Source: Clostridia bacterium (GTDB lineage Bacteria; Bacillota; Clostridia; CAKSNL01; HGM11501). From it: 64,000 nucleotides of DNA. The position numbers were made by a program, and so were the translations under genes. The DNA lies in NCBI GenBank assembly GCA_045545475.1, contig JAZQAZ010000020.1, positions 81,618 to 145,617 of the forward strand, read 5' to 3'. Numbering within the stretch: position 1 is the first letter of the stretch; each line of letters opens with the position of its first letter. Under the pieces are notes generated by a model, which saw only the letters and a program-made list of their open reading frames with translations, did no database searches and was not told the DNA's origin. Of this stretch, positions 25,787 to 37,595 are shown one piece after another.

Positions 25787-25829
25787 AAAACAAGACATTT
25801 ATTTAAATAAATGTCTTGTTTTTATTTTT
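25787..25829 (+). terminator. Terminator of the arg operon (perfect 36-bp AT-rich palindrome)
   Basis: AAAACAAGACATTTATTT/AAATAAATGTCTTGTTTT (25787-25822) followed by a T-rich tail. Confidence 0.7.
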
Positions 25830-25878
25830 GAGTTGTGCTATAATATCAAGGATTGAGTTATAAAGTGAGGCAGTTTTT

Positions 25879-27348
25879 ATGATGAGGAAAATTGGCTTTG
25901 ACAACGAAAAATACATAAAGATGCAGTCTGAACACATCGGAAAGCGTGTTGAGGAGTTCGGCGACAAGCTTTACTTGGAGCTTGGCGGTAAGCTTTTTGA
26001 TGACTATCACGCATCCCGAGTGCTTCCCGGTTTTCAGCCTGACAGTAAAATGAAGATGCTTATGCACTTATCGGACAAGCTTGAAATCGTCATCGTTATA
26101 AGTGCCATCGACATTGTGAAAAACAAGGTGAGAAGCGACTATAACATAACCTATGACCTTGATACAATCCGCCTTATTGAAGCATTCAAAGGCCTCGGTC
26201 TTATGGTGGGAAGCGTTGTTATAACTCAGTATAGCTCTCAGGCAGCGGCAGACGTTTTTAAGAAAAGGCTTGAAAATATGGGAATGAAGGTATTTCTTCA
26301 CTATCCCATTGAAGGTTACCCATCAAATGTGGAACTGATTGTAAGTGACGAAGGCTACGGCAAAAACGATTATATCGAAACCGAGCGGCCCATCGTTGTC
26401 GTAACCGCACCGGGTCCCGGAAGCGGAAAAATGGCAACCTGCTTATCTCAGCTCTATCACGAAAACAAGAGGGGAGTGAAGGCGGGCTACGCCAAGTTTG
26501 AAACCTTCCCCATATGGAACCTTCCCTTAAAGCATCACGTAAATCTGGCGTATGAAGCTGCAACGGTGGACTTAAATGACGTCAACATGATTGACCCGTT
26601 CCATCTTGAAGCATACGGTGAAACAGCCGTAAATTATAACAGAGACATTGAAATTTTCCCTGTGCTTAATGCTATGTTTGAAAAGATAATGGGGACGAGC
26701 CCTTATAAGTCACCTACGGATATGGGCGTTAATATGGCGGGAAATTGCATAATCGACGACGAGGTTGTCCGTCAGGCATCAAAGGAAGAAATTGTAAGAA
26801 GATACTACCAGGTATTAAAAGATAAAACCAACGGAAAATGCGACATTGACGTGATAAGGAAAATGGAGCTTATCATGAAGCAGGCAGAGGTAAGTACCCT
26901 TGACCGTAAGGTTGCAGAGGCGGCACTTAAAAAAGCGGAAACTGCTAAGGGCCCCGTGTGTGCAATCCAGCTTCCCGACGGCAAGATAGTAACGGGAAAA
27001 ACCTCCTCGCTTCTTGGTGCATCCAGTGCGGCACTCCTTAATGCACTTAAGGAAATAACGGGAATCGAGGATGATGTTCATCTTATATCACCGGAGGTTA
27101 TTGAGCCTCTTCAGAACCTTAAAATAAATCATCTGGGAAGCAAAAACCCGAGAATACATATGGATGAAACATTGGTTGCTCTTTCAATCTGTGCGGCAAG
27201 TGATCCTTTAGCGAAAAAGGCACTCGAAGGCATAAGTGAGCTTAAGGGTGCGGAAGCACACTCAACCGTAATTTTATCACAGGTAGATGAAAATATGTTC
27301 AAAAAGCTTGGCATAAATTTAACATGCGAAGCAACATATAATAAATAA
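25879..27348 (+). CDS. Conserved P-loop protein of unknown function (DUF1846/UPF0371-like)
   Basis: KIGFDNEKY, LYLELGGKLFDDYHASRVLPGF, VVTAPGPGSGKMATCLSQLYHE, YAKFETFPIWNLPLKH. Confidence 0.88.
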   Translation: MMRKIGFDNEKYIKMQSEHIGKRVEEFGDKLYLELGGKLFDDYHASRVLPGFQPDSKMKMLMHLSDKLEIVIVISAIDIVKNKVRSDYNITYDLDTIRLIEAFKGLGLMVGSVVITQYSSQAAADVFKKRLENMGMKVFLHYPIEGYPSNVELIVSDEGYGKNDYIETERPIVVVTAPGPGSGKMATCLSQLYHENKRGVKAGYAKFETFPIWNLPLKHHVNLAYEAATVDLNDVNMIDPFHLEAYGETAVNYNRDIEIFPVLNAMFEKIMGTSPYKSPTDMGVNMAGNCIIDDEVVRQASKEEIVRRYYQVLKDKTNGKCDIDVIRKMELIMKQAEVSTLDRKVAEAALKKAETAKGPVCAIQLPDGKIVTGKTSSLLGASSAALLNALKEITGIEDDVHLISPEVIEPLQNLKINHLGSKNPRIHMDETLVALSICAASDPLAKKALEGISELKGAEAHSTVILSQVDENMFKKLGINLTCEATYNK

Positions 27349-27354
27349 TTCTGT

Positions 27355-27388
27355 GGCAGCTGTAAACTTATGTTTACAGCTGCCTTTT
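27355..27388 (+). terminator. Intrinsic terminator insulating the recombinase locus
   Basis: GGCAGCTGTAAAC-TTAT-GTTTACAGCTGCC-TTTT. Confidence 0.88.
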
Positions 27389-27397
27389 ATTTTGCGC

Positions 27398-27426
27398 TTG
27401 CAATTCTTTACAAAATATGTAATAAT
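27398..27426 (+). promoter_or_regulatory. Probable promoter of the recombinase gene
   Basis: TTGCAA - 17 nt - AATAAT with extended TG. Confidence 0.5.
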
Positions 27427-27481
27427 AAATCCGGATGCCGGACAGAATAATACAGCCTTAATAAAAATAAGGAGGTTTATT

Positions 27482-28312
27482 ATGGATTTTTTATCTGAAT
27501 TCAGAGAAAGGCTTGTAAATGATGAGAAGGCAAAACTTACTGTGGAAAAATATGTAAGAGACTGCAGGGCGTTTTTAGCATGGGTTTCGGAAAGCGGGAG
27601 AACGCTGGATAAAGAGGCGGTGCTTTGCTATAAGGAGCTTATTTCAAAGAAACACAAAACTGCCGGAGCGAATTCTATACTGTCATCTCTGAATGCATAT
27701 TTTTCATATATAGGGAGAGATGAGCTTAAGGTAAAAATATTAAAGAGACAAATGACTACCTTCAGAAACGAAGAGAAAGAACTTACGAGAGACGAATATG
27801 TAAGGCTGCTTAATGCCGCAAAGGAGCGTAAAAACAGAAAGCTTTATTATATTATGATGACTGTATGCCGCACAGGGATAAGAATTTCGGAGCTTTCTTA
27901 TATTACGGTGGAAGCGGCAAGAAAAAAGGAGGCGGTTATAGGAAATAAGGGGAAGATAAGAATTATCCTGCTTCCGGAAAAGCTTTGCAGAGAGCTTCTT
28001 TGTTATGCTTCTGAAGAAAAAATAAAAAGCGGCCCCCTGTTTGTAACAAAAAACGGGAATCCGCTTGACCGATCAAATATATGGAAAATGATGAAATCTC
28101 TTTGCGAAAGTGCGAATGTGGAAAGGGAAAAGGTTTTTCCGCATAATTTAAGGCATCTTTTTGCGGTAACCTTTTACAGTGTCCATAAAGATATTGTGCA
28201 TCTGGCAGATATTTTAGGACATTCTACGGTTTCCACTACAAGAATTTATACACTGGAAAGCAGCGGGGCACATAGAAAACAGATGGAACAACTAACAGGT
28301 CTTTTGATTTAA
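27482..28312 (+). CDS. Tyrosine site-specific recombinase (probable DNA invertase), 276 aa
   Basis: AAGGAGG RBS before ATG 27482. Complete catalytic set: TGIRISE (R), GNKGK (K), FPHNLRH (HxxR), ILGHS (H), TTRIY (Y). N-terminal SAM-like region (TVEKYVRD); no arm-binding domain is evident. Confidence 0.93.
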   Translation: MDFLSEFRERLVNDEKAKLTVEKYVRDCRAFLAWVSESGRTLDKEAVLCYKELISKKHKTAGANSILSSLNAYFSYIGRDELKVKILKRQMTTFRNEEKELTRDEYVRLLNAAKERKNRKLYYIMMTVCRTGIRISELSYITVEAARKKEAVIGNKGKIRIILLPEKLCRELLCYASEEKIKSGPLFVTKNGNPLDRSNIWKMMKSLCESANVEREKVFPHNLRHLFAVTFYSVHKDIVHLADILGHSTVSTTRIYTLESSGAHRKQMEQLTGLLI

Positions 28313-28321
28313 AAATAAAAA

Positions 28322-28347
28322 TACCACATAATGCCGATTATGTGGTA
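28322..28347. repeat. Left recombination site (inverted repeat IRL)
   Basis: TACCACATAA-TGCCGA-TTATGTGGTA: palindromic 10-bp arms around an asymmetric 6-bp core, 9 nt after the recombinase stop. Confidence 0.92.
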
Positions 28348-28367
28348 AAAAGAATTATTACATAAAG

Positions 28368-28396
28368 ATTATAACATCAGGGAAGCGGTTTGTCAA
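28368..28396 (-). promoter_or_regulatory. Perfect-consensus sigma-A promoter inside the invertible segment
   Basis: Minus strand TTGACA (28396-28391) - AACCGCTTCCCTGATGT (17 nt, extended TG) - TATAAT (28373-28368). No minus-strand gene lies immediately downstream in this orientation. Confidence 0.88.
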
Positions 28397-28450
28397 TAGT
28401 TTTTTATCAATGGAAAAATAAAACTTTGCAAAAATCAGACATAATGAAGC

Positions 28451-28487
28451 GACCGATGAGGCAGAATTTTACATCGGTCTTTTTTTT
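28451..28487 (+). terminator. Unidirectional intrinsic terminator inside the invertible segment
   Basis: GACCGATG-13nt-CATCGGTC-TTTTTTTT; no A-run on the left side. Confidence 0.8.
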
Positions 28488-28550
28488 GCGCACATTTTTT
28501 GGGAAAAATTTCTTTTTATAAAATCCGTATGGCAGATGAGAAGGAGAGAT

Positions 28551-28576
28551 TACCACATAATCGGCATTATGTGGTA
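28551..28576. repeat. Right recombination site (inverted repeat IRR)
   Basis: TACCACATAA-TCGGCA-TTATGTGGTA, the exact reverse complement of 28322-28347 (27 bp with one flanking base). Confidence 0.92.
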
Positions 28577-28612
28577 GAAAATTATGAGTGGTTTTTTGAA
28601 AGGAAGGATTTT

Positions 28613-31600
28613 ATGAAAAAGGAGTTTTTGCACATTTTCAGCTTCGTTATGATTGCAATTTTCACATTCTCTTGTATCGGGGCTGTAAGTGCGGAAGAAA
28701 CCTTCGATATTCCCGTAATTGAGGAAGTATCGGAGGAGGAGCTTGCAGAGGTTCTCCCGGAAGAGGCAGACGTGGAGATGATGGAGGAAGAAACGGAAAT
28801 CGCTAAGGAAGAAGCATATTTTGAAATACGTGACGGAAAAGGAAATCATGTATGGTTTTTTGCTGATTTGAAGGAGGCACTTTCCTCAGATAAATTACAA
28901 AACGGCTATACACTTTTGATGCTGAAAGACTACACTTGGGATTATACTCTGGCAGATGTATCCAAGGGCGAAATCAGCGGAATAGATATGCCGGGAAGTA
29001 AAACCTTCACATGGGACGGCGACGGTCATACCATTACCGACAAATTTGACAGAAGCAAGTATACGAGAATGACTCAAAAAGACGGTGTATGGACTACGGA
29101 GTTGGGAGGCCATGATGACAGAGCTTCCTACAATCTTGGTAGTGCAAAAGTAACTGCGAAAAACATAACATTTTCGGGAAATCCGCAAAATACGATTAAT
29201 AAACAGGGACATACAAATGGCTGTTTTAATATCGGTAACGGTCAGCTTACATTGAAGGATGTTAAATTTATAAACTATTTCGGATGGAACGGCAGCGTTT
29301 GTTGGATGCAGGGAACAGGCAAGCTGGTTATGGTTGAAAATGTAACTGCCGAAAACTGTTCAGTGCAATACCACGGTCTTATAGGGATAAATAAAGGAAC
29401 TGCTGAAATAAGCGGATTCACTATGAAAAACTGTAAAGGAACTGCTGCTATCGGTGTAGGTACAGTTGCTTCCGAGGCAAGCCTTAACATAGAAAACAGC
29501 ACTATAACAAATTGTTCAACCGGAATACTTGTAGGAGCTTCTGGTGAGTCTGGTAATCAGGGTGTTGCTAATATTGGAGACAATGTGACTATATCCGGTT
29601 GTTCATATGGTATATCTGTTCATACTGGTGCTACAGTCAATGTGACAGGCTTAAACGTTAATATTAACAGAAATACCGAAAGTGGTATAGTTCTTTACAA
29701 CAAAAAGGAAGCTGAAATTGGCTCAACATTAAATGCAACTGGTGGAATGAATATAACAGAAAACCAGAACGCCGGTATTGATATTGCTGAAAACTCAATA
29801 GTTATATTAAATGGCAATGTCAATGTTACAGAAAATACAAATGCTGATATCAGAATGGAAGTAGCTGACGCACTTGAGGTTGGCGAAGGCTTTACTGGAA
29901 CGGCAGGAGTTAGTGTTGTTTCAAACGATATCTGGTTCGGACATCTGGCAGAAGGGGTAGAAACACTTAATGGAACAATATACGAGGGAATTGATCCCAA
30001 CGGACATAAAGGTGCTGTATATGAAAGCCTGATTGGTTCGGGAACGGTAACCCATAACGGAAAAACATATTCTCTTAAAAAGCCTGTAACAAGAGACCTT
30101 GACGATAATGCTCTTGTAATTGGCTACAAAATGTATAAAAAAACAGGCTCCGATGCGGCGGGATACAAGAGAGTCGGAGCGGATGCTGCCATAGGTACAA
30201 GTATGCTCAGCGGTGGAGAAATTTATCTTCTTTCGGATATAACTTTGGCAGGAGATATCAAGTGCGATAAGGATAGCTCTACTATTGACGACCACTTTGA
30301 CTTTACCGGAAGCACAGCTGTTGCAAATATATACGGAAATGGTCACACAATAAGCATTCATGATGATTATACAAAGGGGCATTTTTTCGCAGTTTACCAG
30401 GATGCGACCATGAATTTCCACGACGTTATTTATAACGGAAAAGGAAGGACGACTTTTGCCTATATACACTGCTCGGAAGACCCTAAGGGTGGCGGTGCAA
30501 TAAGTGCAGACAATGTTATATATTATAATGGTAAGCATACTACCTATGCCGGCGGTATTTATAACTCAGGAGAAGCCTATGCCGGTACAATAAATGTAAA
30601 AGACTGTAAGTTTATAGCATGCAAAGGTGCAAACGGCGGTGCATTATATTCTACAGGACTCGGCGTGCTCAATGTATCTGATACAGACTTTATAGATTGT
30701 GCGGCTACAAGTAACGGAGGTGCAGTTTATCTCACCAATAATCATACAATGACTATGTCTGGAGAAATCAATGCTACAGGCAATAAGCGTGGAAGCAAGG
30801 AAAACAATGTGTACCTTTCAAGCGGAGCGAAAATAAACATAGCAGGAAACATAACAGGTGAAATAGGTCTTACTATGGCACAGTCAGGTGCAACCTTCGG
30901 AACTGTTGCAGATACCAATATCACAGGTCTTGATTGCTTCTATGCAGATGGTGCAGAGATAAGATATTATACAGCAATCGGCACCGAACCTGTCATTGAA
31001 AAGGTTAAAGGTACCTTGTTCCCGGAAACTGTGGGAACAGGTGAACTTAACGGTGAGGTTGTTATCGATATGCAGGATGTTGCATCAAGAAAAGAGGGAA
31101 GAGAAAAGGATGCAGTTTTGCACTGGCCCTGGATTGTAGTAAAAGAAGACGAAACCAGATACGGATATGTAAGCCTTAACTCGGCGTATTCAAACCTTGC
31201 GGCAACTTCATTCATATATGCTCAGAAGGACATAACAATTCAGCATTTGTGGGATAAAGCTATAACAACTGAAACAACAAGCGAGGAAAGAAAAGAAATC
31301 TATGCACACGTAGAATTTCCTCTTCCGGGTTCTGGAGATAGGCTTAACCATATAAATACGGGAGCAAATGTAAACATCGACGGAAACGGACACGTGATAA
31401 CGGTAGATAAATCTGATAGTAACTATATGTTTGTTATATACGGCAATAACAAGAGCTTGCAACTTAAAAACTTTATTTATAACGCCGATAAGCCTATGGC
31501 ACATATACATAAAGACCAGGCAAACGGAACAGAAGCGATTATCATAAATAACAGTTATTTCAACAGTCCGAACAGAAATGTTATAGGTGCATTTAAGGGA

Positions 31601-32446
31601 GGAACGGTCACTGTCAATGACAGCACAGTGATTGGAACTTTCGATATAGGATCAGGAGCTAAGCTTATACTTTCTGATACGGCAGTTTCAAAACCGAGCG
31701 GAAAGAGTGTGGTTCTTACCGGTGTTGCACCTGTTGAAGCAAGCGGCGAAACAGCGGCAGTTCCTGCGGTAATTACAAAAGTAACGGTAAAGGGTGATAC
31801 GACGATTTCAGCAGGTAATGGCCTTTATGCAAATAATAAGTATGTCGAAGTTATAATAGACGAAAGCTTTACCGGTTCAATTGAGGTAAATGAGGCGAAC
31901 GGCTGTATAGATAATGTTAAAGCAGGCGAAGGCTTTACTTCCTTAGAGTCTGTAAAGAGCATTACTAAAGCAGGTTCAAACGGCGAAACATTTGCATATT
32001 ATGACGAAGCAAATGAAAAGTTTGCGTGGACTATGGCACCTGAGCTTACACGTACGACAGATTCGGGTAAGTATAGTGACGGGTACGGAACAATAAGATT
32101 TCTGACAACATTTAAAACTGTTGACTCTGCTGCCGTTGCAAGTTATGGAACCTATGCGGTGGGAGAAAGCAGCTTTGTTGAGAATGCAGAGTGGGAAGAA
32201 ACAGAGTTCATAAAATTTGACAAGACACCGGAAGCTGATAAGGTATATTATGTTGATGTTATAAAAATTCCCGCGGAGCATTTTGATACAAAAATTAAGG
32301 CACTCAGCTTTGTAAAGATTAAAGGAATAAAAACCCCCATTTATTACGATTTCAATTTGGCAAGTGTAAATAAAAATGACACAGAAACAGGCGAGGGAAC
32401 ACTGAAGAACTTAGGCAAGCCAACATATGCCGAAGCAGAAGCATGA
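28613..32446 (+). CDS. Large secreted/surface protein, ~1277 aa, predicted beta-helix (pectate-lyase-like/Pmp-like) repeats; possible adhesin
   Basis: GAAAGGAAGG RBS before ATG 28613. Signal peptide MKKEFLH..GAVSA, Glu-rich linker, three D/Y-G-x-GH-x-I modules (DGDGHTI, YGNGHTI, DGNGHVI), GGAI/GGIY/GGALY/GGAVY motifs, Asn/Gly/Thr-rich strands. Confidence 0.8.
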   Translation: MKKEFLHIFSFVMIAIFTFSCIGAVSAEETFDIPVIEEVSEEELAEVLPEEADVEMMEEETEIAKEEAYFEIRDGKGNHVWFFADLKEALSSDKLQNGYTLLMLKDYTWDYTLADVSKGEISGIDMPGSKTFTWDGDGHTITDKFDRSKYTRMTQKDGVWTTELGGHDDRASYNLGSAKVTAKNITFSGNPQNTINKQGHTNGCFNIGNGQLTLKDVKFINYFGWNGSVCWMQGTGKLVMVENVTAENCSVQYHGLIGINKGTAEISGFTMKNCKGTAAIGVGTVASEASLNIENSTITNCSTGILVGASGESGNQGVANIGDNVTISGCSYGISVHTGATVNVTGLNVNINRNTESGIVLYNKKEAEIGSTLNATGGMNITENQNAGIDIAENSIVILNGNVNVTENTNADIRMEVADALEVGEGFTGTAGVSVVSNDIWFGHLAEGVETLNGTIYEGIDPNGHKGAVYESLIGSGTVTHNGKTYSLKKPVTRDLDDNALVIGYKMYKKTGSDAAGYKRVGADAAIGTSMLSGGEIYLLSDITLAGDIKCDKDSSTIDDHFDFTGSTAVANIYGNGHTISIHDDYTKGHFFAVYQDATMNFHDVIYNGKGRTTFAYIHCSEDPKGGGAISADNVIYYNGKHTTYAGGIYNSGEAYAGTINVKDCKFIACKGANGGALYSTGLGVLNVSDTDFIDCAATSNGGAVYLTNNHTMTMSGEINATGNKRGSKENNVYLSSGAKINIAGNITGEIGLTMAQSGATFGTVADTNITGLDCFYADGAEIRYYTAIGTEPVIEKVKGTLFPETVGTGELNGEVVIDMQDVASRKEGREKDAVLHWPWIVVKEDETRYGYVSLNSAYSNLAATSFIYAQKDITIQHLWDKAITTETTSEERKEIYAHVEFPLPGSGDRLNHINTGANVNIDGNGHVITVDKSDSNYMFVIYGNNKSLQLKNFIYNADKPMAHIHKDQANGTEAIIINNSYFNSPNRNVIGAFKGGTVTVNDSTVIGTFDIGSGAKLILSDTAVSKPSGKSVVLTGVAPVEASGETAAVPAVITKVTVKGDTTISAGNGLYANNKYVEVIIDESFTGSIEVNEANGCIDNVKAGEGFTSLESVKSITKAGSNGETFAYYDEANEKFAWTMAPELTRTTDSGKYSDGYGTIRFLTTFKTVDSAAVASYGTYAVGESSFVENAEWEETEFIKFDKTPEADKVYYVDVIKIPAEHFDTKIKALSFVKIKGIKTPIYYDFNLASVNKNDTETGEGTLKNLGKPTYAEAEA

Positions 32447-32455
32447 GGAGGGATA

Positions 32456-32668
32456 ATGATGAACGATAAAATGAATATAACGCAAGAAAATCCCTTTTCC
32501 GAGAACGAGAAAGTAAACAAGGAAAAAAAGAAAAAGGTATATGAAAGCCCCGAAATTACGGTGATAGAAATCGAAACAAAGGATGTCATAAACGCCAGCA
32601 CTTTAATCGGATTCGATGCAGGTGAAAACCTTCTGGGTTCCGGTCAGATAGAGTTTGACTTGAAATAA
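32456..32668 (+). CDS. Small protein with a YxxP leader-like motif
   Basis: GAGGAGG RBS overlapping the upstream stop; KKVYESPEITVIEIETKDVINAS motif. The start could be 32456 or 32459. Confidence 0.75.
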   Translation: MMNDKMNITQENPFSENEKVNKEKKKKVYESPEITVIEIETKDVINASTLIGFDAGENLLGSGQIEFDLK

Positions 32669-32711
32669 TTAATAATCGCGGAAATCGGACCGCATAAAAT
32701 ATGTCTGAAAT

Positions 32712-32812
32712 GCAGAAACAGTGCAACAGCTTGTTGTAAATACAACTGCTTTCTGCTTTTTAGAGAACCACTTCTATGCGAAAAGACGGCTAGCACCGTC
32801 TTTTTGCATTTT
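32712..32812 (+). terminator. Two tandem terminator-like hairpins after the switch-controlled operon
   Basis: GCAGAAA...TTTCTGC-TTTTT (32712-32761) and ATGCGAAAAGACGG-CTAGCA-CCGTCTTTTTGCAT-TTT (32776-32812). Confidence 0.7.
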
Positions 32813-32853
32813 AAATTTTTGCAGCCGGCAATCTGAACTCATCCGCCTTTTGG

Positions 32854-32934
32854 TGTCATTCTGAGTCCGAAGGACGAAGAATCCCGCGCAAAAAAGATTC
32901 TTCACTCCGCCTGACGGCTCTGCTCAGAATGACA
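32854..32934. repeat. Pair of TGTCATTCTGAG...GAAGAATC palindromic repeats
   Basis: TGTCATTCTGAGTCCGAAGGACGAAGAATC (32854-32883) and inverted AGATTCTTC..GCTCAGAATGACA (32895-32934). The first unit is nearly the reverse complement of 16472-16502. Confidence 0.85.
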
Positions 32935-33073
32935 GGTGGGAATATAAATAAAACAGAAAAGTTTTAAGAAAATAACAATTTCCCCTTGTTTTAATTTCTT
33001 TTTAGTGATATAATAATTAATTAATAATATAATCGGAGAAATTGTGTCTTTTTGTGAAAGGAAAGAGCAAATT

Positions 33074-33607
33074 ATGAAGATAAAAGTTGATAAACTTACA
33101 TATAAAGAGTTTACTGAATATGCGGATTCCACCGTGGCAAAGCCTATAAAAATGACTCTGGCGTTTTTCATCGGCGTGGCAATAATTTTAATCATTATCG
33201 CAATGAGCAAGCCTTCATTTGAAGGTGCTGTTACACCACTTTTCTGGTGCGTGGGAATTCTTGCGTTCCTTCTTGTGGCATCAAATGCAAGCGTAAATAC
33301 TGCATTTAAAAAATCGGGGCTAGCATCAACTAATTGCAGTTACACCTTTATGGAAGACGGTATGAAAATCGCCATGGGGAAATTAAAGGGCGACCTTGAG
33401 TGGAAATATGTCAAATATGTAAAAGAAACCAAAAATCTCTGGATTATGAGAGTGCCCAACAGCCAGTTTATAATCCCTAAAAGATGTATGAACGAAGAAG
33501 AGTGGGAAAGTCTTATAGATACATATATTCCCGAAGATAAAATAAAGCGGATGAAGTATAAGAGAAGCAACCCTGAAAGGACGAAGGACGATGACAGTGA
33601 AGACTGA
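33074..33607 (+). CDS. YcxB-like membrane protein
   Basis: Two transmembrane segments, then YTFMEDGM..LEWKYVKYVKETKNLWIM..FIIPKR. Start ATG 33074 behind GAAAGGA. Confidence 0.7.
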   Translation: MKIKVDKLTYKEFTEYADSTVAKPIKMTLAFFIGVAIILIIIAMSKPSFEGAVTPLFWCVGILAFLLVASNASVNTAFKKSGLASTNCSYTFMEDGMKIAMGKLKGDLEWKYVKYVKETKNLWIMRVPNSQFIIPKRCMNEEEWESLIDTYIPEDKIKRMKYKRSNPERTKDDDSED

Positions 33608-34973
33608 GAAAAAAGAAATTTTAAGACAGAAGGACTTTGCCGAAAAGGTTAAAAATATAATTGGCGAAGGGAAAAAATATCTTTTAATAACACTTGGCTG
33701 TCAGCAAAACGAGAGCGACTCTGAAAAGCTTCACGGTATGCTTGGGAAAATGGGCTACACCGAAACAGAAAGCTTAGATGATGCCGACCTTATTTTATAT
33801 AACACCTGTGCGGTAAGGGAAAATGCGGAGAAAAAGCTTTTCGGAAGAATAGGTGCATTAAAACCCTATAAGGAAAAAAATCCCGACCTTATAATAGGTG
33901 TGTGCGGTTGTATGACACAGCAAAAGGGGATGGATGAACGTTTTCGTCGCTATTATAAATACGTTGATATGGTTTTCGGAACCCATAGTTTATACGCCTT
34001 TCCGGAGATTTTGTATAAGGCGATAGAAGATAGATTGCAGGTTCGTGACATAAGAGATATTGACGGAGAGGTTACAGAAGGTATTCCGATAAAAAGGCAG
34101 AGCAACGTAAAGGCCTACCTTTCTGTTATGTATGGCTGTAACAACTTCTGCAGCTACTGCGTTGTGCCCTATGTAAGGGGCAGGGAGCGAAGCCGTGAAT
34201 ATAAGGATGTATTGGATGAAGCAAAGTCAATTGCGTCCTCCGGCATAAAGGAAATTATGCTCCTTGGACAGAACGTAAACTCCTACAATGGGGGCTTAAG
34301 CTTTGCAGAGCTTGTGGCGAAGGTCAGCGAAATTGACGGGATTGAGCGAATCCGCTTTATGTCATCCCACCCCAAGGATATTGGAAGTGAGCTTATCGAC
34401 GTTATGGCACAGCGTAAAAATGTGTGTAATCAGCTTCATCTTCCCGTACAGTCGGGAAGCGACCGTATACTAAAGATTATGAACCGTCGCTACACGGTTG
34501 AAAAATATATGGGAATAATTGACGAGGTTAAGCGAAAAATTCCCGATGTTACCCTTACAACCGACATAATCGTGGGCTTCCCCGGTGAAACCAACGAGGA
34601 TTTTTATAAGACTATGGAGCTTTTAAGAAAAGTACGCTATGACAGCATTTTCTCATTTATCTACTCAAAGAGAAAAGGCACGCCTGCCGCAGTTATGGAA
34701 GATTGCCTGACAGAGGAAGAAAAGCACATTAATTTTGACAGGATGTTAAAGCTTCAGAACGATATTTCCCTGGAAAAGAACAAAGCAATGATAGGCTCTG
34801 TTCAGTCTGTTTTAGTGGAAGGCGAAAGCAAAACAGACAAGCTGCGTCAGTGCGGAAGATCGGAAGGCGGAAAATTAGTGCATTTTGCTTCCGATAAGGA
34901 TTTGACCGGCGAAATAGTTAAAGTGAAAATTACGGATGTCAACACCTGGACGCTTTCCGGTGATATGATATAA
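33591..34973 (+). CDS. miaB: tRNA methylthiotransferase MiaB
   Basis: TLGCQQNESDSE, NTCAVRENAE, GCNNFCSYCVVPYVRGRERSR (radical SAM), LLGQNVNSY, TDIIVGFPGET, TRAM-like C-terminus. Confidence 0.96.
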   Translation: MTVKTEKKEILRQKDFAEKVKNIIGEGKKYLLITLGCQQNESDSEKLHGMLGKMGYTETESLDDADLILYNTCAVRENAEKKLFGRIGALKPYKEKNPDLIIGVCGCMTQQKGMDERFRRYYKYVDMVFGTHSLYAFPEILYKAIEDRLQVRDIRDIDGEVTEGIPIKRQSNVKAYLSVMYGCNNFCSYCVVPYVRGRERSREYKDVLDEAKSIASSGIKEIMLLGQNVNSYNGGLSFAELVAKVSEIDGIERIRFMSSHPKDIGSELIDVMAQRKNVCNQLHLPVQSGSDRILKIMNRRYTVEKYMGIIDEVKRKIPDVTLTTDIIVGFPGETNEDFYKTMELLRKVRYDSIFSFIYSKRKGTPAAVMEDCLTEEEKHINFDRMLKLQNDISLEKNKAMIGSVQSVLVEGESKTDKLRQCGRSEGGKLVHFASDKDLTGEIVKVKITDVNTWTLSGDMI

Positions 34974-34988
34974 GAAAGGCTTGATTAA

Positions 34989-37595
34989 ATGATCGAGGAC
35001 AGAAGCAAATTATCTGCTATGATGAGGCAGTATCTTGCTACAAAGGACGAATATCCCGATGCGATACTTATGTACCGTGTGGGTGACTTTTATGAAATGT
35101 TTTTTGACGATGCAAAAACCGCATCCGCAGCACTTGACCTGGTTTTAACAGGAAAGGACTGCGGCCTTAGTGAGCGTGCACCCATGTGCGGTGTGCCCTT
35201 TCATGCGGCTGATAACTATATAGCACGTCTTGTTTCAAAGGGCTTCAAGGTTGCTATCTGTGAGCAGGTTGAAGACCCGAAAGAGGCAAAAGGACTTGTT
35301 AAGCGTGACGTAATAAGGGTGGTAACACCGGGAACCATAACAGACGAAGCAGTTTTAGATTCCCGACCAACAAACTATATGTGTGCCATAAATAAGTCGG
35401 AGGAGGTAACGGCTCTTGCCATTGCCGATGTTTCAACCGGTGAGGTTTTGGTAACGGAATTTACAAAGGACGAATTTAATTCCGAGCTTATAAGCGAACT
35501 TGACCGTTTTTCACCTGTTGAAATATTGCTGGGACAGGGTGCAGTTTCCGATTCGGAATTAGTTTCCTACATAAACGATAAGACAAAGGCACTTTGCTTC
35601 TCCTGCGACGAAAGCTATTTCGACTACGACAACGCCCTTGCAATAATCGGTGAGCAGTTCGGAAAAGAAGGGGACAAGCTTAAGGGTAAAAAGGAACTTT
35701 CCGGTGCTCTTTCTGCACTTTTATCCTACATTATGGAAACCCAGAAGGTTGAACTTTCCCATATGAAAGAAATTGAATTTTTCACCACCAACCGCTATAT
35801 GGAAGTGGGAAGTGTGGCTCAGAAAAATTTAGAGCTGGTTGAAAATATGCAGGATAAGACAAAGCGTGGCACTCTTTTAAGCATCCTTGATAAAACCTGC
35901 ACAACAATGGGAAGAAGAACCGTTAAAAGCTGGATTTTAAGGCCACTCATTGATACAGTGAAAATTAAAAACAGACTTGATGCCGTTGGTGAAGCATCTG
36001 AAAAGCTTCAGGCAAGAACCAACCTTCGTGATTTAATGGCATCGGTAAACGATATTGAAAGAATTGTAAGCCGTGTTTCCCTTGGGACGGTTAACCCAAG
36101 AGACTTGGTTGCACTTAAAACATCCCTTATGATGCTTCCTGCCATAAAGGAAGAAAGCGGAAAATTTACTTCCGACTTTATGAAAAAACAGTGCGGTGAC
36201 ATAGAAATATTAAATGATTTGACTATGCTCATCGATATGGCGATAGTTGATAAGGACACACCCATAACCGTAAGAGAAGGAAAAATCATAAAGGAAGGCT
36301 TTTCCGAGGAAATAGACTACTTGAATAAGCTTATGTCTGACAGCAAGGGAATCATTGCAGGCATCGAGGCAAGGGAAAGGGAAAGAACGGGAATTCCCAA
36401 GCTTAAGGTGGGCTATAACAAGGTGTTCGGATACTACATCGAGGTTTCAAATGTACATAAGGACAAGGTACCGGAAGACTATATAAGAAAGCAGACTCTT
36501 ACAAACGGAGAAAGATACATAACAGAAGAGCTTAAAGAGGTTGAAAAGGACGTTTTAAGTGCTTCTGAAAAGGTTATCCGCCTTGAATACGAGGCATTTA
36601 TGAAGGTGGTTTCAGCCGTAAAGGAAAAAATCGGAAGCATACAGAAAATCTCCCATGCCATCGGTGTAATGGACGTTATATGCTCCTTTGCTCATGTGGC
36701 TGTGAAAAATTCCTACTGTATGCCGATAGTTGATACATCGGACAATCTTGAAATCAAGGACGGTCGCCATCCCGTGGTTGAGCAGATAAACGAAAAAGAG
36801 CTTTTTGTTCCCAATGATACAAACCTTTCGGGCAAGGGCGACTCAATGGCGATAATCACAGGTCCTAATATGGCGGGTAAATCCACATATATGCGTCAGG
36901 TTGCCTTAATCTCTCTTATGGCACAGATTGGTTCATTTGTTCCTGCAAGCTTCTGCCACGTCGGCGTGGTTGACAAGATATTCACCCGTGTTGGTGCGTC
37001 CGACGATTTATCCTCGGGCAGAAGTACATATATGGTTGAAATGAGCGAGGTAGCGGAAATCGTAAACAATGCAACTAAAAAGAGCCTTATTATCTTAGAT
37101 GAAATAGGAAGAGGTACAAGCACCTTTGACGGACTTTCCATGGCGTGGTCAATTGTTGAATACTGTGCGGAAAAAATAAAGGCGAGAACACTTTTCGCCA
37201 CCCACTATCACGAGCTTACGGAGCTTGAAAGCACGCTCCCCGGCGTTAAGAATTACTGCATTGCAGTTAAAAAGAGGGGCGACGACATAATTTTCCTCCG
37301 CAAGATAATAAGAGGCGGAGCGGACGAAAGCTACGGTATAGAGGTTGCCCGTCTTGCAGGCATAAAGGACAGTATAATAAAGCGTGCCAAGGAAATTCTT
37401 GCCAAGGTGGAAAACGAAAACCCCAGAGAAAGAAAGACGGCTATAAGGGCGGAAGCGGACACTCAGCTTGATATGTCGGGAATGGTTAAGGATACCATCG
37501 TTGACCGCCTTCGTATGATTGACATAACAACAATTTCGCCCTTGGAGGCACTTAACATATTAAACGAACTTAAAAACAAGGCTGACGAAGCATAA
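34989..37595 (+). CDS. mutS: DNA mismatch repair protein MutS
   Basis: GDFYEMF, PMCGVPFH, ITGPNMAGKSTYMRQ, ILDEIGRGTSTFDG, FATHYHEL, SYGIEVARLAG. Confidence 0.99.
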   Translation: MIEDRSKLSAMMRQYLATKDEYPDAILMYRVGDFYEMFFDDAKTASAALDLVLTGKDCGLSERAPMCGVPFHAADNYIARLVSKGFKVAICEQVEDPKEAKGLVKRDVIRVVTPGTITDEAVLDSRPTNYMCAINKSEEVTALAIADVSTGEVLVTEFTKDEFNSELISELDRFSPVEILLGQGAVSDSELVSYINDKTKALCFSCDESYFDYDNALAIIGEQFGKEGDKLKGKKELSGALSALLSYIMETQKVELSHMKEIEFFTTNRYMEVGSVAQKNLELVENMQDKTKRGTLLSILDKTCTTMGRRTVKSWILRPLIDTVKIKNRLDAVGEASEKLQARTNLRDLMASVNDIERIVSRVSLGTVNPRDLVALKTSLMMLPAIKEESGKFTSDFMKKQCGDIEILNDLTMLIDMAIVDKDTPITVREGKIIKEGFSEEIDYLNKLMSDSKGIIAGIEARERERTGIPKLKVGYNKVFGYYIEVSNVHKDKVPEDYIRKQTLTNGERYITEELKEVEKDVLSASEKVIRLEYEAFMKVVSAVKEKIGSIQKISHAIGVMDVICSFAHVAVKNSYCMPIVDTSDNLEIKDGRHPVVEQINEKELFVPNDTNLSGKGDSMAIITGPNMAGKSTYMRQVALISLMAQIGSFVPASFCHVGVVDKIFTRVGASDDLSSGRSTYMVEMSEVAEIVNNATKKSLIILDEIGRGTSTFDGLSMAWSIVEYCAEKIKARTLFATHYHELTELESTLPGVKNYCIAVKKRGDDIIFLRKIIRGGADESYGIEVARLAGIKDSIIKRAKEILAKVENENPRERKTAIRAEADTQLDMSGMVKDTIVDRLRMIDITTISPLEALNILNELKNKADEA

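Follow-up and report, generated by a model that had tools for sequence, protein, structure and literature searches.

Promoters inverted by site-specific recombination are well studied in Bacteroides, Escherichia coli and Clostridioides difficile, but work on the uncultured Clostridia that predominate in the guts of animals is much scarcer. In the fimS switch of E. coli, an invertible segment bounded by 9-bp repeats carries the promoter of a surface structure, and the genes of the recombinases FimB and FimE adjoin it. In C. difficile, RecV, the recombinase of the cwpV switch, is not known to be encoded beside cwpV. According to the parts of PMC2784873 covered here, the inverted repeats of this switch flank 195 bp, the segment lacks a promoter, and a terminator that forms in the transcript causes the OFF state. 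In Mycoplasma agalactiae, the Xer-like recombinase Xer1 is encoded next to the vpma genes, and inversions move expression among six of them (PMC2268961, same restriction). More recently, a study published in Microbiome in 2025 (PMC11892184) has described, in its covered parts, an inverton group 139 (32/33 from Clostridia) with a 'previously unpublished' repeat motif, most significantly linked to a tyrosine recombinase 'invertase group 35' that is also reported in Bacteroidia. Almost every inverton of this group has a recombinase of the tyrosine type nearby. The examples given include 26-nt repeats around an interior of 205 nt (by coordinates) in Clostridium sp. D5 and 14-nt repeats around 227 nt in Intestinimonas, and the orientation of group-139 invertons shifts over culture passages. 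The locus considered here lies in a 64,000-nt window (the whole stretch of DNA that was analysed) from a Clostridia bacterium, whose source assembly, G000, comprises 2.74 Mb in 50 contigs; all coordinates are positions in this window. It consists of the gene of a Xer-like tyrosine recombinase, a 201-nt segment between two inverted sites and an operon encoding a 1277-amino-acid (aa) secreted protein, the cargo, and a 70-aa peptide, and it is very probably a working invertible-promoter phase switch (inverton), assembled in its OFF orientation.

The two sites, L (28322-28348) and R (28550-28576), form the inverted repeat around a short segment that is expected of an inverton: a repeat search gave 27 nt with 100% complementarity and arms 201 nt apart. 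The repeat is unique in the genome. Indeed, the 26-mer site with up to 3 mismatches occurs at two places only in the window, L and R (mean of 0.00 in shuffled sequences, 0/100 with two or more matches), and L and R are also the sole matches of the site arms with a free centre and up to 2 mismatches in the whole G000 assembly. Each site is an 11-bp palindrome about a centre of 4 nt, which is asymmetric and reads GCCG at L and CGGC at R, L being TACCACATAAT-GCCG-ATTATGTGGTA(A) and R its exact reverse complement. As the sites are themselves palindromic around this centre, they differ only in its polarity. Such an anatomy resembles that of a tyrosine-recombinase core site, in which two identical arms would receive two subunits and the asymmetric centre would set the polarity. 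On the minus strand, the hairpin of L is followed by TTTTTATTTT, and folding of this 11-bp hairpin with UUUUUAUUUUU after it gave -12.4 to -12.6 kcal/mol (z -3.72). R also forms a hairpin, without a T-run after it on the plus strand.

The interior (28349-28549) contains a promoter-like sequence, TTGACA-17-TATAAT, that matches the consensus at 12/12 positions with an extended -10 TG. It lies on the minus strand (28396 to 28368), where it points at the recombinase gene, and it is the sole 12/12 match within 27000-33200; on the plus strand, from the recombinase gene to the ATG at 28613, matches reach 9/12 at best. The internal promoter able to face the neighbouring gene that is typical of invertons can therefore be recognized here from its sequence (12/12 with TG). 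The interior also carries a terminator-like plus-strand hairpin (28451-28487), with an 8-bp stem followed by T8 and a fold of -12.6 kcal/mol (z -1.74). Beyond R, a ribosome-binding site, AAGGAAGG (28600-28607, plus strand), stands 5 nt ahead of ATG 28613. Upstream of the recombinase gene, a terminator-like plus-strand hairpin of 13 pairs with the tail TTTTATTTTG (27355-27384) follows a DUF1846 gene as a probable left insulator, and a weak promoter-like site (27398-27426, plus strand) matches the consensus at 9/12 positions with TG at its -10 box. Another terminator-like plus-strand hairpin (32776-32809; 14 pairs, tail TTTAAATTTT) closes the unit as a probable right insulator. A first-pass annotation of the window had proposed such a switch from the sequence, with L and R as exact reverse complements, a perfect promoter facing away from the 1277-aa gene and no other promoter for this gene, and with the ribosome-binding site, the gene of this signal-peptide protein and a 70-aa open reading frame (ORF) after site R. 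The analysis bears out this anatomy throughout, with the repeat at 27 nt and the interior at 201 nt.

Inversion of the segment is directly seen between related genomes. The orthologous locus of the sister genome G001 (the same place as L035, from a goat-colon Clostridia metagenome-assembled genome, MAG) encodes a recombinase that is 97% identical to that of G000. The left flanks of the two loci are identical at 2233/2340 positions and both sites at 27/27, whereas the interiors agree at 196/201 positions when one is reverse-complemented and at 59/201 when they are compared directly. A blastn comparison of both genomes likewise aligned 28322-28576 reversed, at 98%, between direct flanks of 95-97%. 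In the flipped copy, the promoter points toward the cargo gene and its -10 box is 82 nt from the ATG, exactly the distance that the first-pass annotation had calculated for the inverted state. The ON junctions that it had predicted are also present (L035, 6800-7160), the left one exactly as predicted and the right one with 3 strain differences. Both orientations of the segment exist, at least between genomes. In public metagenome run X19, contigs stop at 28347, one contig of 255 nt corresponds exactly to 28322-28576 and the next begins at 28550, as expected of a k=31 assembly graph in which both orientations are present. This run also contains two variants of the recombinase 3' end (28238-28347), at depths of 13.9 and 4.3, one of which has a 1-nt deletion at 28317, between the recombinase stop codon and site L, and two strains coexist in it. 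As this polymorphism accounts for part of the left break, X19 is suggestive only. The exact 27-mer site had 0 matches in metagenome contigs of the Joint Genome Institute (JGI).

These features suggest the following mechanism. The recombinase would bind the palindromic 11-bp arms of L and R, presumably with two subunits per site, and strand exchange in the asymmetric centre would flip the 201-nt interior because the centres of L and R are in inverted orientation. In the OFF state, the consensus promoter is aimed at the recombinase gene from its 3' side. Transcripts starting from it would run into L, on this strand a hairpin with a U-run after it, and would stop there before going antisense into the gene. 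In the same state, the internal plus-strand terminator would block read-through from the recombinase gene into the cargo. Folding supports these putative insulation roles of L and of the internal hairpin. In the ON state, the promoter would lie 82 nt upstream of ATG 28613, and transcription would pass site R, a hairpin without U-run, into the operon encoding a predicted 1277-aa beta-helix protein and the 70-aa peptide.

The recombinase (P0002; 27482-28312, plus strand; 276 aa), whose stop codon is 9 nt from L, is the probable catalyst of the inversion. As the first-pass annotation had noted, it is an intact tyrosine recombinase: it matches Pfam Phage_integrase (2.2e-24), and the catalytic RKHRHY-type residues are in place in an alignment to XerA 4a8e (R134, K156/158, H221, R224, H247 and Y256). 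Its closest relatives in the PDB are XerA 4a8e (3.2e-23) and 5hxy (1.3e-20), followed by XerD and XerH. It falls well short of all NCBIfam cut-offs and does not qualify as a Xer dimer resolvase according to these models, its bit scores against the cut-offs being 133.2/220 for XerA, 120.9/329.6 for XerD, 101.3/335 for XerC and 59/267 for XerS. Nor is the arrangement that of a dif-type resolvase, with one site per replicon, as two inverted sites lie directly 3' of the gene. With 33.7 and 23.9 bits against cut-offs of 221 and 222 for NF007370 and NF007371, it scores far under the FimB/FimE models and is therefore not an invertase of this family. Among the viral contigs of IMG/VR, 9 pattern matches were found, none of them a relative, using patterns that detect close relatives only.

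This recombinase and its sites belong to a large family. Homologues with 44-69% identity were found in 11/14 genomes of the GTDB family of the window, with up to 10 matches per genome, and in 82 stretches of a species-representative collection, mostly MAGs (with the labels Clostridia, Oscillospiraceae, Lachnospiraceae, Mediterraneibacter and Erysipelotrichaceae) together with isolates such as Faecalicatena contorta. At E<=1e-60, the recombinase family is present in 97/401 sampled genomes of the class, belonging to 58/217 genera. The view of the first-pass annotation that site and cargo match no recognized system has to be given up as regards the recombinase and the site, which form a family found in about one quarter of the sampled Clostridia genomes. 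The same annotation had asked whether homologous recombinases have the same sites downstream. Most do: a repeat pair, defined as a 16-nt inverted repeat with up to 2 mismatches that starts within about 100 nt of the stop codon and has its partner 100-450 nt further on, lies 3' of 88/92 homologues, as opposed to 5/76 upstream control windows of equal size and 4/76 shuffled windows. The pooled set consists of the copies from both genome collections that have at least 450 nt downstream, after removal of L001, L002 and L006 as duplicates. The site consensus, aACCACATAAT-NNNN-ATTATGTGGTa, fits 80/88 sites and has 48 different centres, 2 of them palindromic at 4 nt and none at 6 nt. The interiors measure 155-415 nt; 62/88 contain a promoter match of at least 11/12 (12/12 in 37), and the median distance of the -10 box to the closer of the two sites is 38.5 nt. 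In 39/88 loci, L is preceded by an A-rich stretch (at least 8 A in 12 nt); a T-rich stretch in the 12 nt that follow R occurs in 2/88.

Inversion is also seen within the family, where 12 of the 30 pairs of loci with homologous interiors are in opposite orientation. For example, L072 and L073, from Mediterraneibacter MAGs of the chicken gut, do not differ in their flanks, and their 229-nt interior, which precedes the gene of a Rrf2-type regulator, is also identical but flipped. A third copy of the site occurs near L or R in several loci (L007, 2590-2640; L008, 2593-2643; L009, 2324-2384; L015, 2323-2392) and might make other inversions, or a number of states above two, possible. Furthermore, one member with 46% identity, L083, has the site and was found on a contig whose MAG carries the label Rikenellaceae (Bacteroidia), which reflects either a transfer between phyla or a binning error.

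Several points speak against this reading of the locus and its relatives, or at least reduce its weight. The use of the promoter and the OFF/ON effect on the cargo rest on the sequence. The public runs are assembled contigs in which rare variants are invisible, so that the differences in orientation were seen between assemblies and not within one clonal population, where switching would be expected. In runs X1, X2 and X8, which are gut metagenomes from three studies, single contigs bridge the switch in the OFF orientation only, and no ON junction was found among the loose contig ends listed for these runs; as contigs drop rare variants, these OFF-only contigs are uninformative on a minor ON fraction. 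Concerning the family, overlaps between the two collections other than the three duplicates were kept, so that the 92 copies are not fully deduplicated. The orientations (56 OFF, 26 ON and 6 ties at the 88 loci, according to the better-scoring strand) are calls from consensus promoter scores. The terminator finder is crude: it placed a terminator-like site opposite the promoter strand in 47/82 interiors and also on the promoter strand in 22/82. The arm variants do not co-vary with the recombinase tree (21 changes, compared with 17-21 in the 10 listed out of 200 shuffles; 75 rows, quick tree). A private centre for each cassette within a genome had to be rejected as a rule, since L032, L033 and L034 of genome G008 share ATAC; L027 and L029 of the same genome have this centre by eye but are misregistered in the alignment, and three Lapin-022 loci have the common centre CAGC. 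As arm variants do not track the tree and centres are shared, there is no indication that a recombinase acts specifically on the sites next to it.

Four other explanations of the locus have to be weighed against a working switch. The segment might have been inverted once or rarely and now be fixed, the difference between G000 and G001 being an old rearrangement; differences directly seen between assemblies only and three metagenome runs with one orientation are what this predicts. It is nevertheless very unlikely, given that both 27-nt sites are perfect and identical in G000 and G001, that the recombinase is intact, that homologous pairs are opposite in 12/30 cases, including L072/L073 with 100% identical flanks and interior, and that X19 contigs break exactly at the repeat edges. 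In addition, the covered parts of PMC11892184 describe flips during culture passages for what is probably the identical family. The idea that the recombinase serves a mobile element as its integrase, with the repeats as the ends or attachment sites of this element, used to move the 5.6-kb insert and not to control a gene, draws on the lack of the unit at the same spot in G003 and G006 and on a unit of about 1.3-1.4 kb repeated at 90-94% before unrelated genes in G007 and G008 (see below). The sites, however, enclose 201 nt only and not the insert, the edges of the sites show no target duplication and no relative was retrieved among viral contigs with the patterns of this query. L and R are also inverted, so that recombination between them inverts and cannot excise. 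This idea is most improbable.

The most probable of the alternatives is still unlikely: the switch would act mainly, like that of cwpV, through the orientation of an internal terminator on read-through from the recombinase promoter, the internal promoter being secondary. The plus-strand hairpin with T8 within the interior in the OFF state fits it, as do the 47/82 family interiors with a terminator-like site opposite the promoter and the shared orientation of the recombinase and cargo genes, L not being followed by a terminator. It accounts poorly for an internal 12/12 promoter with TG, for the 62/88 family members that reach at least 11/12, always near one site, and for a recombinase promoter of only 9/12; besides, terminator and promoter mechanisms are compatible with each other. 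Finally, each site is a hairpin, and L with its T-rich sequence scores as a minus-strand terminator, as would be the case if L and R were ordinary hairpin terminators or a repeated palindromic element without any recombination. This is scarcely credible for a sequence that occurs only twice in the genome, in copies that differ solely by an inverted asymmetric centre, and whose motif follows 88/92 homologous recombinases; it is contradicted by the flipped interior of the sister genome and by the family pairs in opposite orientation. A working invertible promoter remains by far the best explanation of the locus.

The switch belongs to an inserted unit (27349-32978, plus strand, as delimited against genus members with an empty site) that comprises the recombinase gene, the switch, the cargo gene, the small peptide gene and the terminators. 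In blastn comparisons of window positions 25801-35100 with genomes G006, G003 and G004, homology ends at 27344-27348 and restarts at 32979-32999. The distance between the DUF1846 and MiaB-like genes is 6.1-6.2 kb in G000 and G001. At the empty site it is 812 nt in G006 and 657 nt in G003, where a YcxB-like gene alone lies between them. The first-pass annotation had likewise viewed the locus as a cassette inserted between other genes and insulated by terminators; the genus members without it and the hairpins on both sides agree with this. At the DUF1846/YcxB spot, G004 harbours a different insert of about 3 kb (L117, G004:C12, 1700-4700), with a 250-aa ORF on the opposite strand, perhaps DeoR-like judging from its N-terminus, and two further ORFs. 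This intergenic spot may be an insertion hotspot.

Paralogous units of G007 and G008 (L023, L026-L034) show that the recombinase and the switch are repeated as a block. These units, of about 1.3-1.4 kb, have 90-94% nucleotide identity and are followed by unrelated genes, the identity running from about 120-260 nt 5' of the recombinase gene to 10-25 nt past R; G008 contains at least 10 recombinase matches. What cargo follows homologous recombinases had been another question of the first-pass annotation, and the answer is a varied one, including large secreted proteins, helicases and regulators. Among the 83 first ORFs after R that were scanned for domains, ResIII was found in 13, Helicase_C in 12, HA in 11, Rrf2 in 7 and TetR in 6; further, assorted domains of surface proteins were SLH, Flg_new, Big_2, fn3, VWA, SdrD_B, BspA-type leucine-rich repeats, Cna_B and sortase. 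The 13 downstream genes with ResIII/Helicase_C, 11 of which have HA, belong to L011, L044, L080, L081, L087, L090, L093, L097, L100, L101, L104, L107 and L113, and may encode phase-variable nucleic-acid enzymes. PADLOC, applied to three of them, gave partial matches only, confined to helicase cores in its models of type IV restriction and PbeA, which is too little for an assignment to defence genes.

The cargo gene of the window (28613-32446, plus strand; P0001) encodes a protein with a Sec-type signal peptide, an acidic stretch, predicted beta-helix modules and an Ig-like C-terminal domain. It has no Pfam family, and its single NCBIfam match (E 0.0027) is due to chance. No sequence relative was found in the PDB (best E 0.91), and 5.8 billion clustered proteins contain only 2 relatives. 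The Protein Atlas returned unnamed clusters at 0.92-0.94 and beta-helix families below 0.9, which are leads only. In an AlphaFold2 (AF2) model of residues 60-700 built from a 12-row alignment, with a predicted local distance difference test (pLDDT) score of 81.7, all strands are short. Foldseek matched it to right-handed beta-helix proteins only (PL6 lyases, Ag43-like 4kh3, PfbA, SRRP, tailspikes), with a best E of 6.8e-5 and low TM values of 0.14-0.33. Since the model matches beta-helix proteins only, the cargo is probably a secreted beta-helix protein. The 'giant surface protein' of the first-pass annotation is retained as far as secretion and a predicted beta-helical structure are concerned; its location at the surface finds no counterpart in a known wall anchor, neither an LPXTG-like motif nor an anchoring domain of Pfam or NCBIfam having been detected. 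Both ends of the gene are conserved: the signal-peptide region (to 28769) and, at the other end, the last ~175 codons with the downstream sequence (from 31917) are 92-97% identical in G000 and G001. The middle 3.1 kb (28770-31917) are only patchily alignable between G000 and L035, and the whole proteins of G000 and G001 are 42-47% identical. Such a pattern points to a replacement of alleles or to strong diversification in the exposed part, and a cargo that is hypervariable between conserved ends would suit a function exposed to the host or to phages.

The last 238 aa (31730-32443, plus strand) correspond to a rare domain that is nearly always C-terminal, with 48 representatives at E<=1e-3 among 1.84 billion proteins. 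Its AF2 model (38 rows, pLDDT 83.8) is a beta-sandwich, for which Foldseek gave generic Ig-like matches only (best E 1.3e-3). The 70-aa peptide gene (32456-32668, plus strand; P0006) belongs to a family of 45-71-aa peptides encoded after genes with this domain; it lies directly 3' of such a gene in 10/14 loci inspected. Across this domain-peptide pair (window 31730-32668; L119-L132), the secreted proteins vary widely in length and end in an Ig-like domain of ~200 aa, and the peptides have a basic N-terminus, a Y-E-S/A-P motif, an acidic strand and a C-terminal I-E-x-D-L. Complex prediction supports a binding of the 70-aa peptide to the C-terminal domain of the cargo. The predicted complex scored 0.72, against 0.00 for the best of 3 controls; the mark applied to such scores was reached by 58/80 solved complexes and 2/110 mismatched pairs, counts that hold only roughly here, since custom alignments were used for the prediction. 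The runs agree in at least 35% of contacts, the pLDDT of the partner is at least 44, and peptide residues 49-69 are predicted to pair with the domain strand 170-181.

Taken together, these data allow a broader reading, which is tentative and somewhat more doubtful than not: the recombinase and the switch would form a portable phase-variation module of ~1.3-1.4 kb and, separately, the cargo operon would be an undescribed two-part system. In the module, a Xer-derived recombinase may have made an inverted pair out of a dif-like site, with a block of promoter and terminator between the two copies. This module may multiply within genomes and land before unrelated genes, such as those encoding secreted giants, ResIII/HA helicases and TetR or Rrf2 regulators. 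As the arms are near-invariant and the 4-nt centre varies, the recombinase of one cassette could work on the sites of another. If this is true, any gene could turn phase-variable, and cassettes with a common centre could swap cargo or rearrange the chromosome. In the two-part system, variable beta-helix proteins may have their Ig-like end completed or capped by a peptide of ~50-70 aa through edge-strand pairing.

The locus itself is a clean example, with a recombinase, 26-nt core sites, a promoter and two terminator elements that would insulate each state, and both states of the switch are documented in related genomes. The picture given by the family nevertheless outweighs any single locus: one conserved motif finds switches from the sequence, with no need for reads, and offers a simple route to the annotation of phase-variable genes in MAGs. 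A system in which one protein would invert DNA between 26-bp sites is also a candidate compact genetic tool.

How does this locus compare with the systems described so far? Like fimS with FimB/FimE, it has a short invertible segment carrying a promoter and an adjoining recombinase gene of the tyrosine type, but its sites are 26-nt dif-like palindromes. The inner halves of the site arms presumably resemble dif sites. Xer proteins (4a8e, 5hxy, 1a0p, 5jjv) are the best sequence relatives of the recombinase, and the Xer/dif systems share the two ~11-bp palindromic arms around a short centre; they differ from the present family, in which two inverted sites lie beside the gene, up to 10 paralogues per genome have their own site pairs and the outcome is inversion and not dimer resolution. 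The cwpV switch, as far as it is described in the covered parts of its source, resembles the locus in its Firmicute host, its segment of ~200 bp before the gene of a large secreted or wall protein, its site-specific recombinase and a terminator in the OFF state. The locus differs, on the same partial basis, from a terminator switch of the cwpV type with its promoter outside the segment, the only strong promoter lying inside the segment here. Similarly, the covered description of Xer1/vpma shares a Xer-like recombinase next to the switched genes; the present locus has one promoter segment and one operon.

The closest counterpart is found in PMC11892184. Its main text gives no repeat motif, and its covered parts contain no analysis of site anatomy, mechanism or cargo; the covered parts of the DeepInverton paper (PMC11602134) do not treat the family. 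In the literature, no published description was found of how the sites are built, how promoter and terminators are laid out, of the repeated module or of the domain-peptide pair, and the supplements of PMC11892184 may hold the motif. As far as the covered parts allow, the locus resembles group 139 in its Clostridia host, in a tyrosine recombinase within 5 kb and in its sizes, 27-nt repeats and a 201-nt interior here; like group 35 with its members in Bacteroidia, the present family has one match in the Rikenellaceae MAG (L083). On this partial view, the family is probably the same as group 139/group 35, matched on host, nearby recombinase and sizes, not on the motif. An invertible promoter with an adjoining tyrosine recombinase is a known kind of switch, and the locus is not a new system; the parts that could prove new are the modular spread of the cassette and the pair formed by the cargo domain and its peptide.

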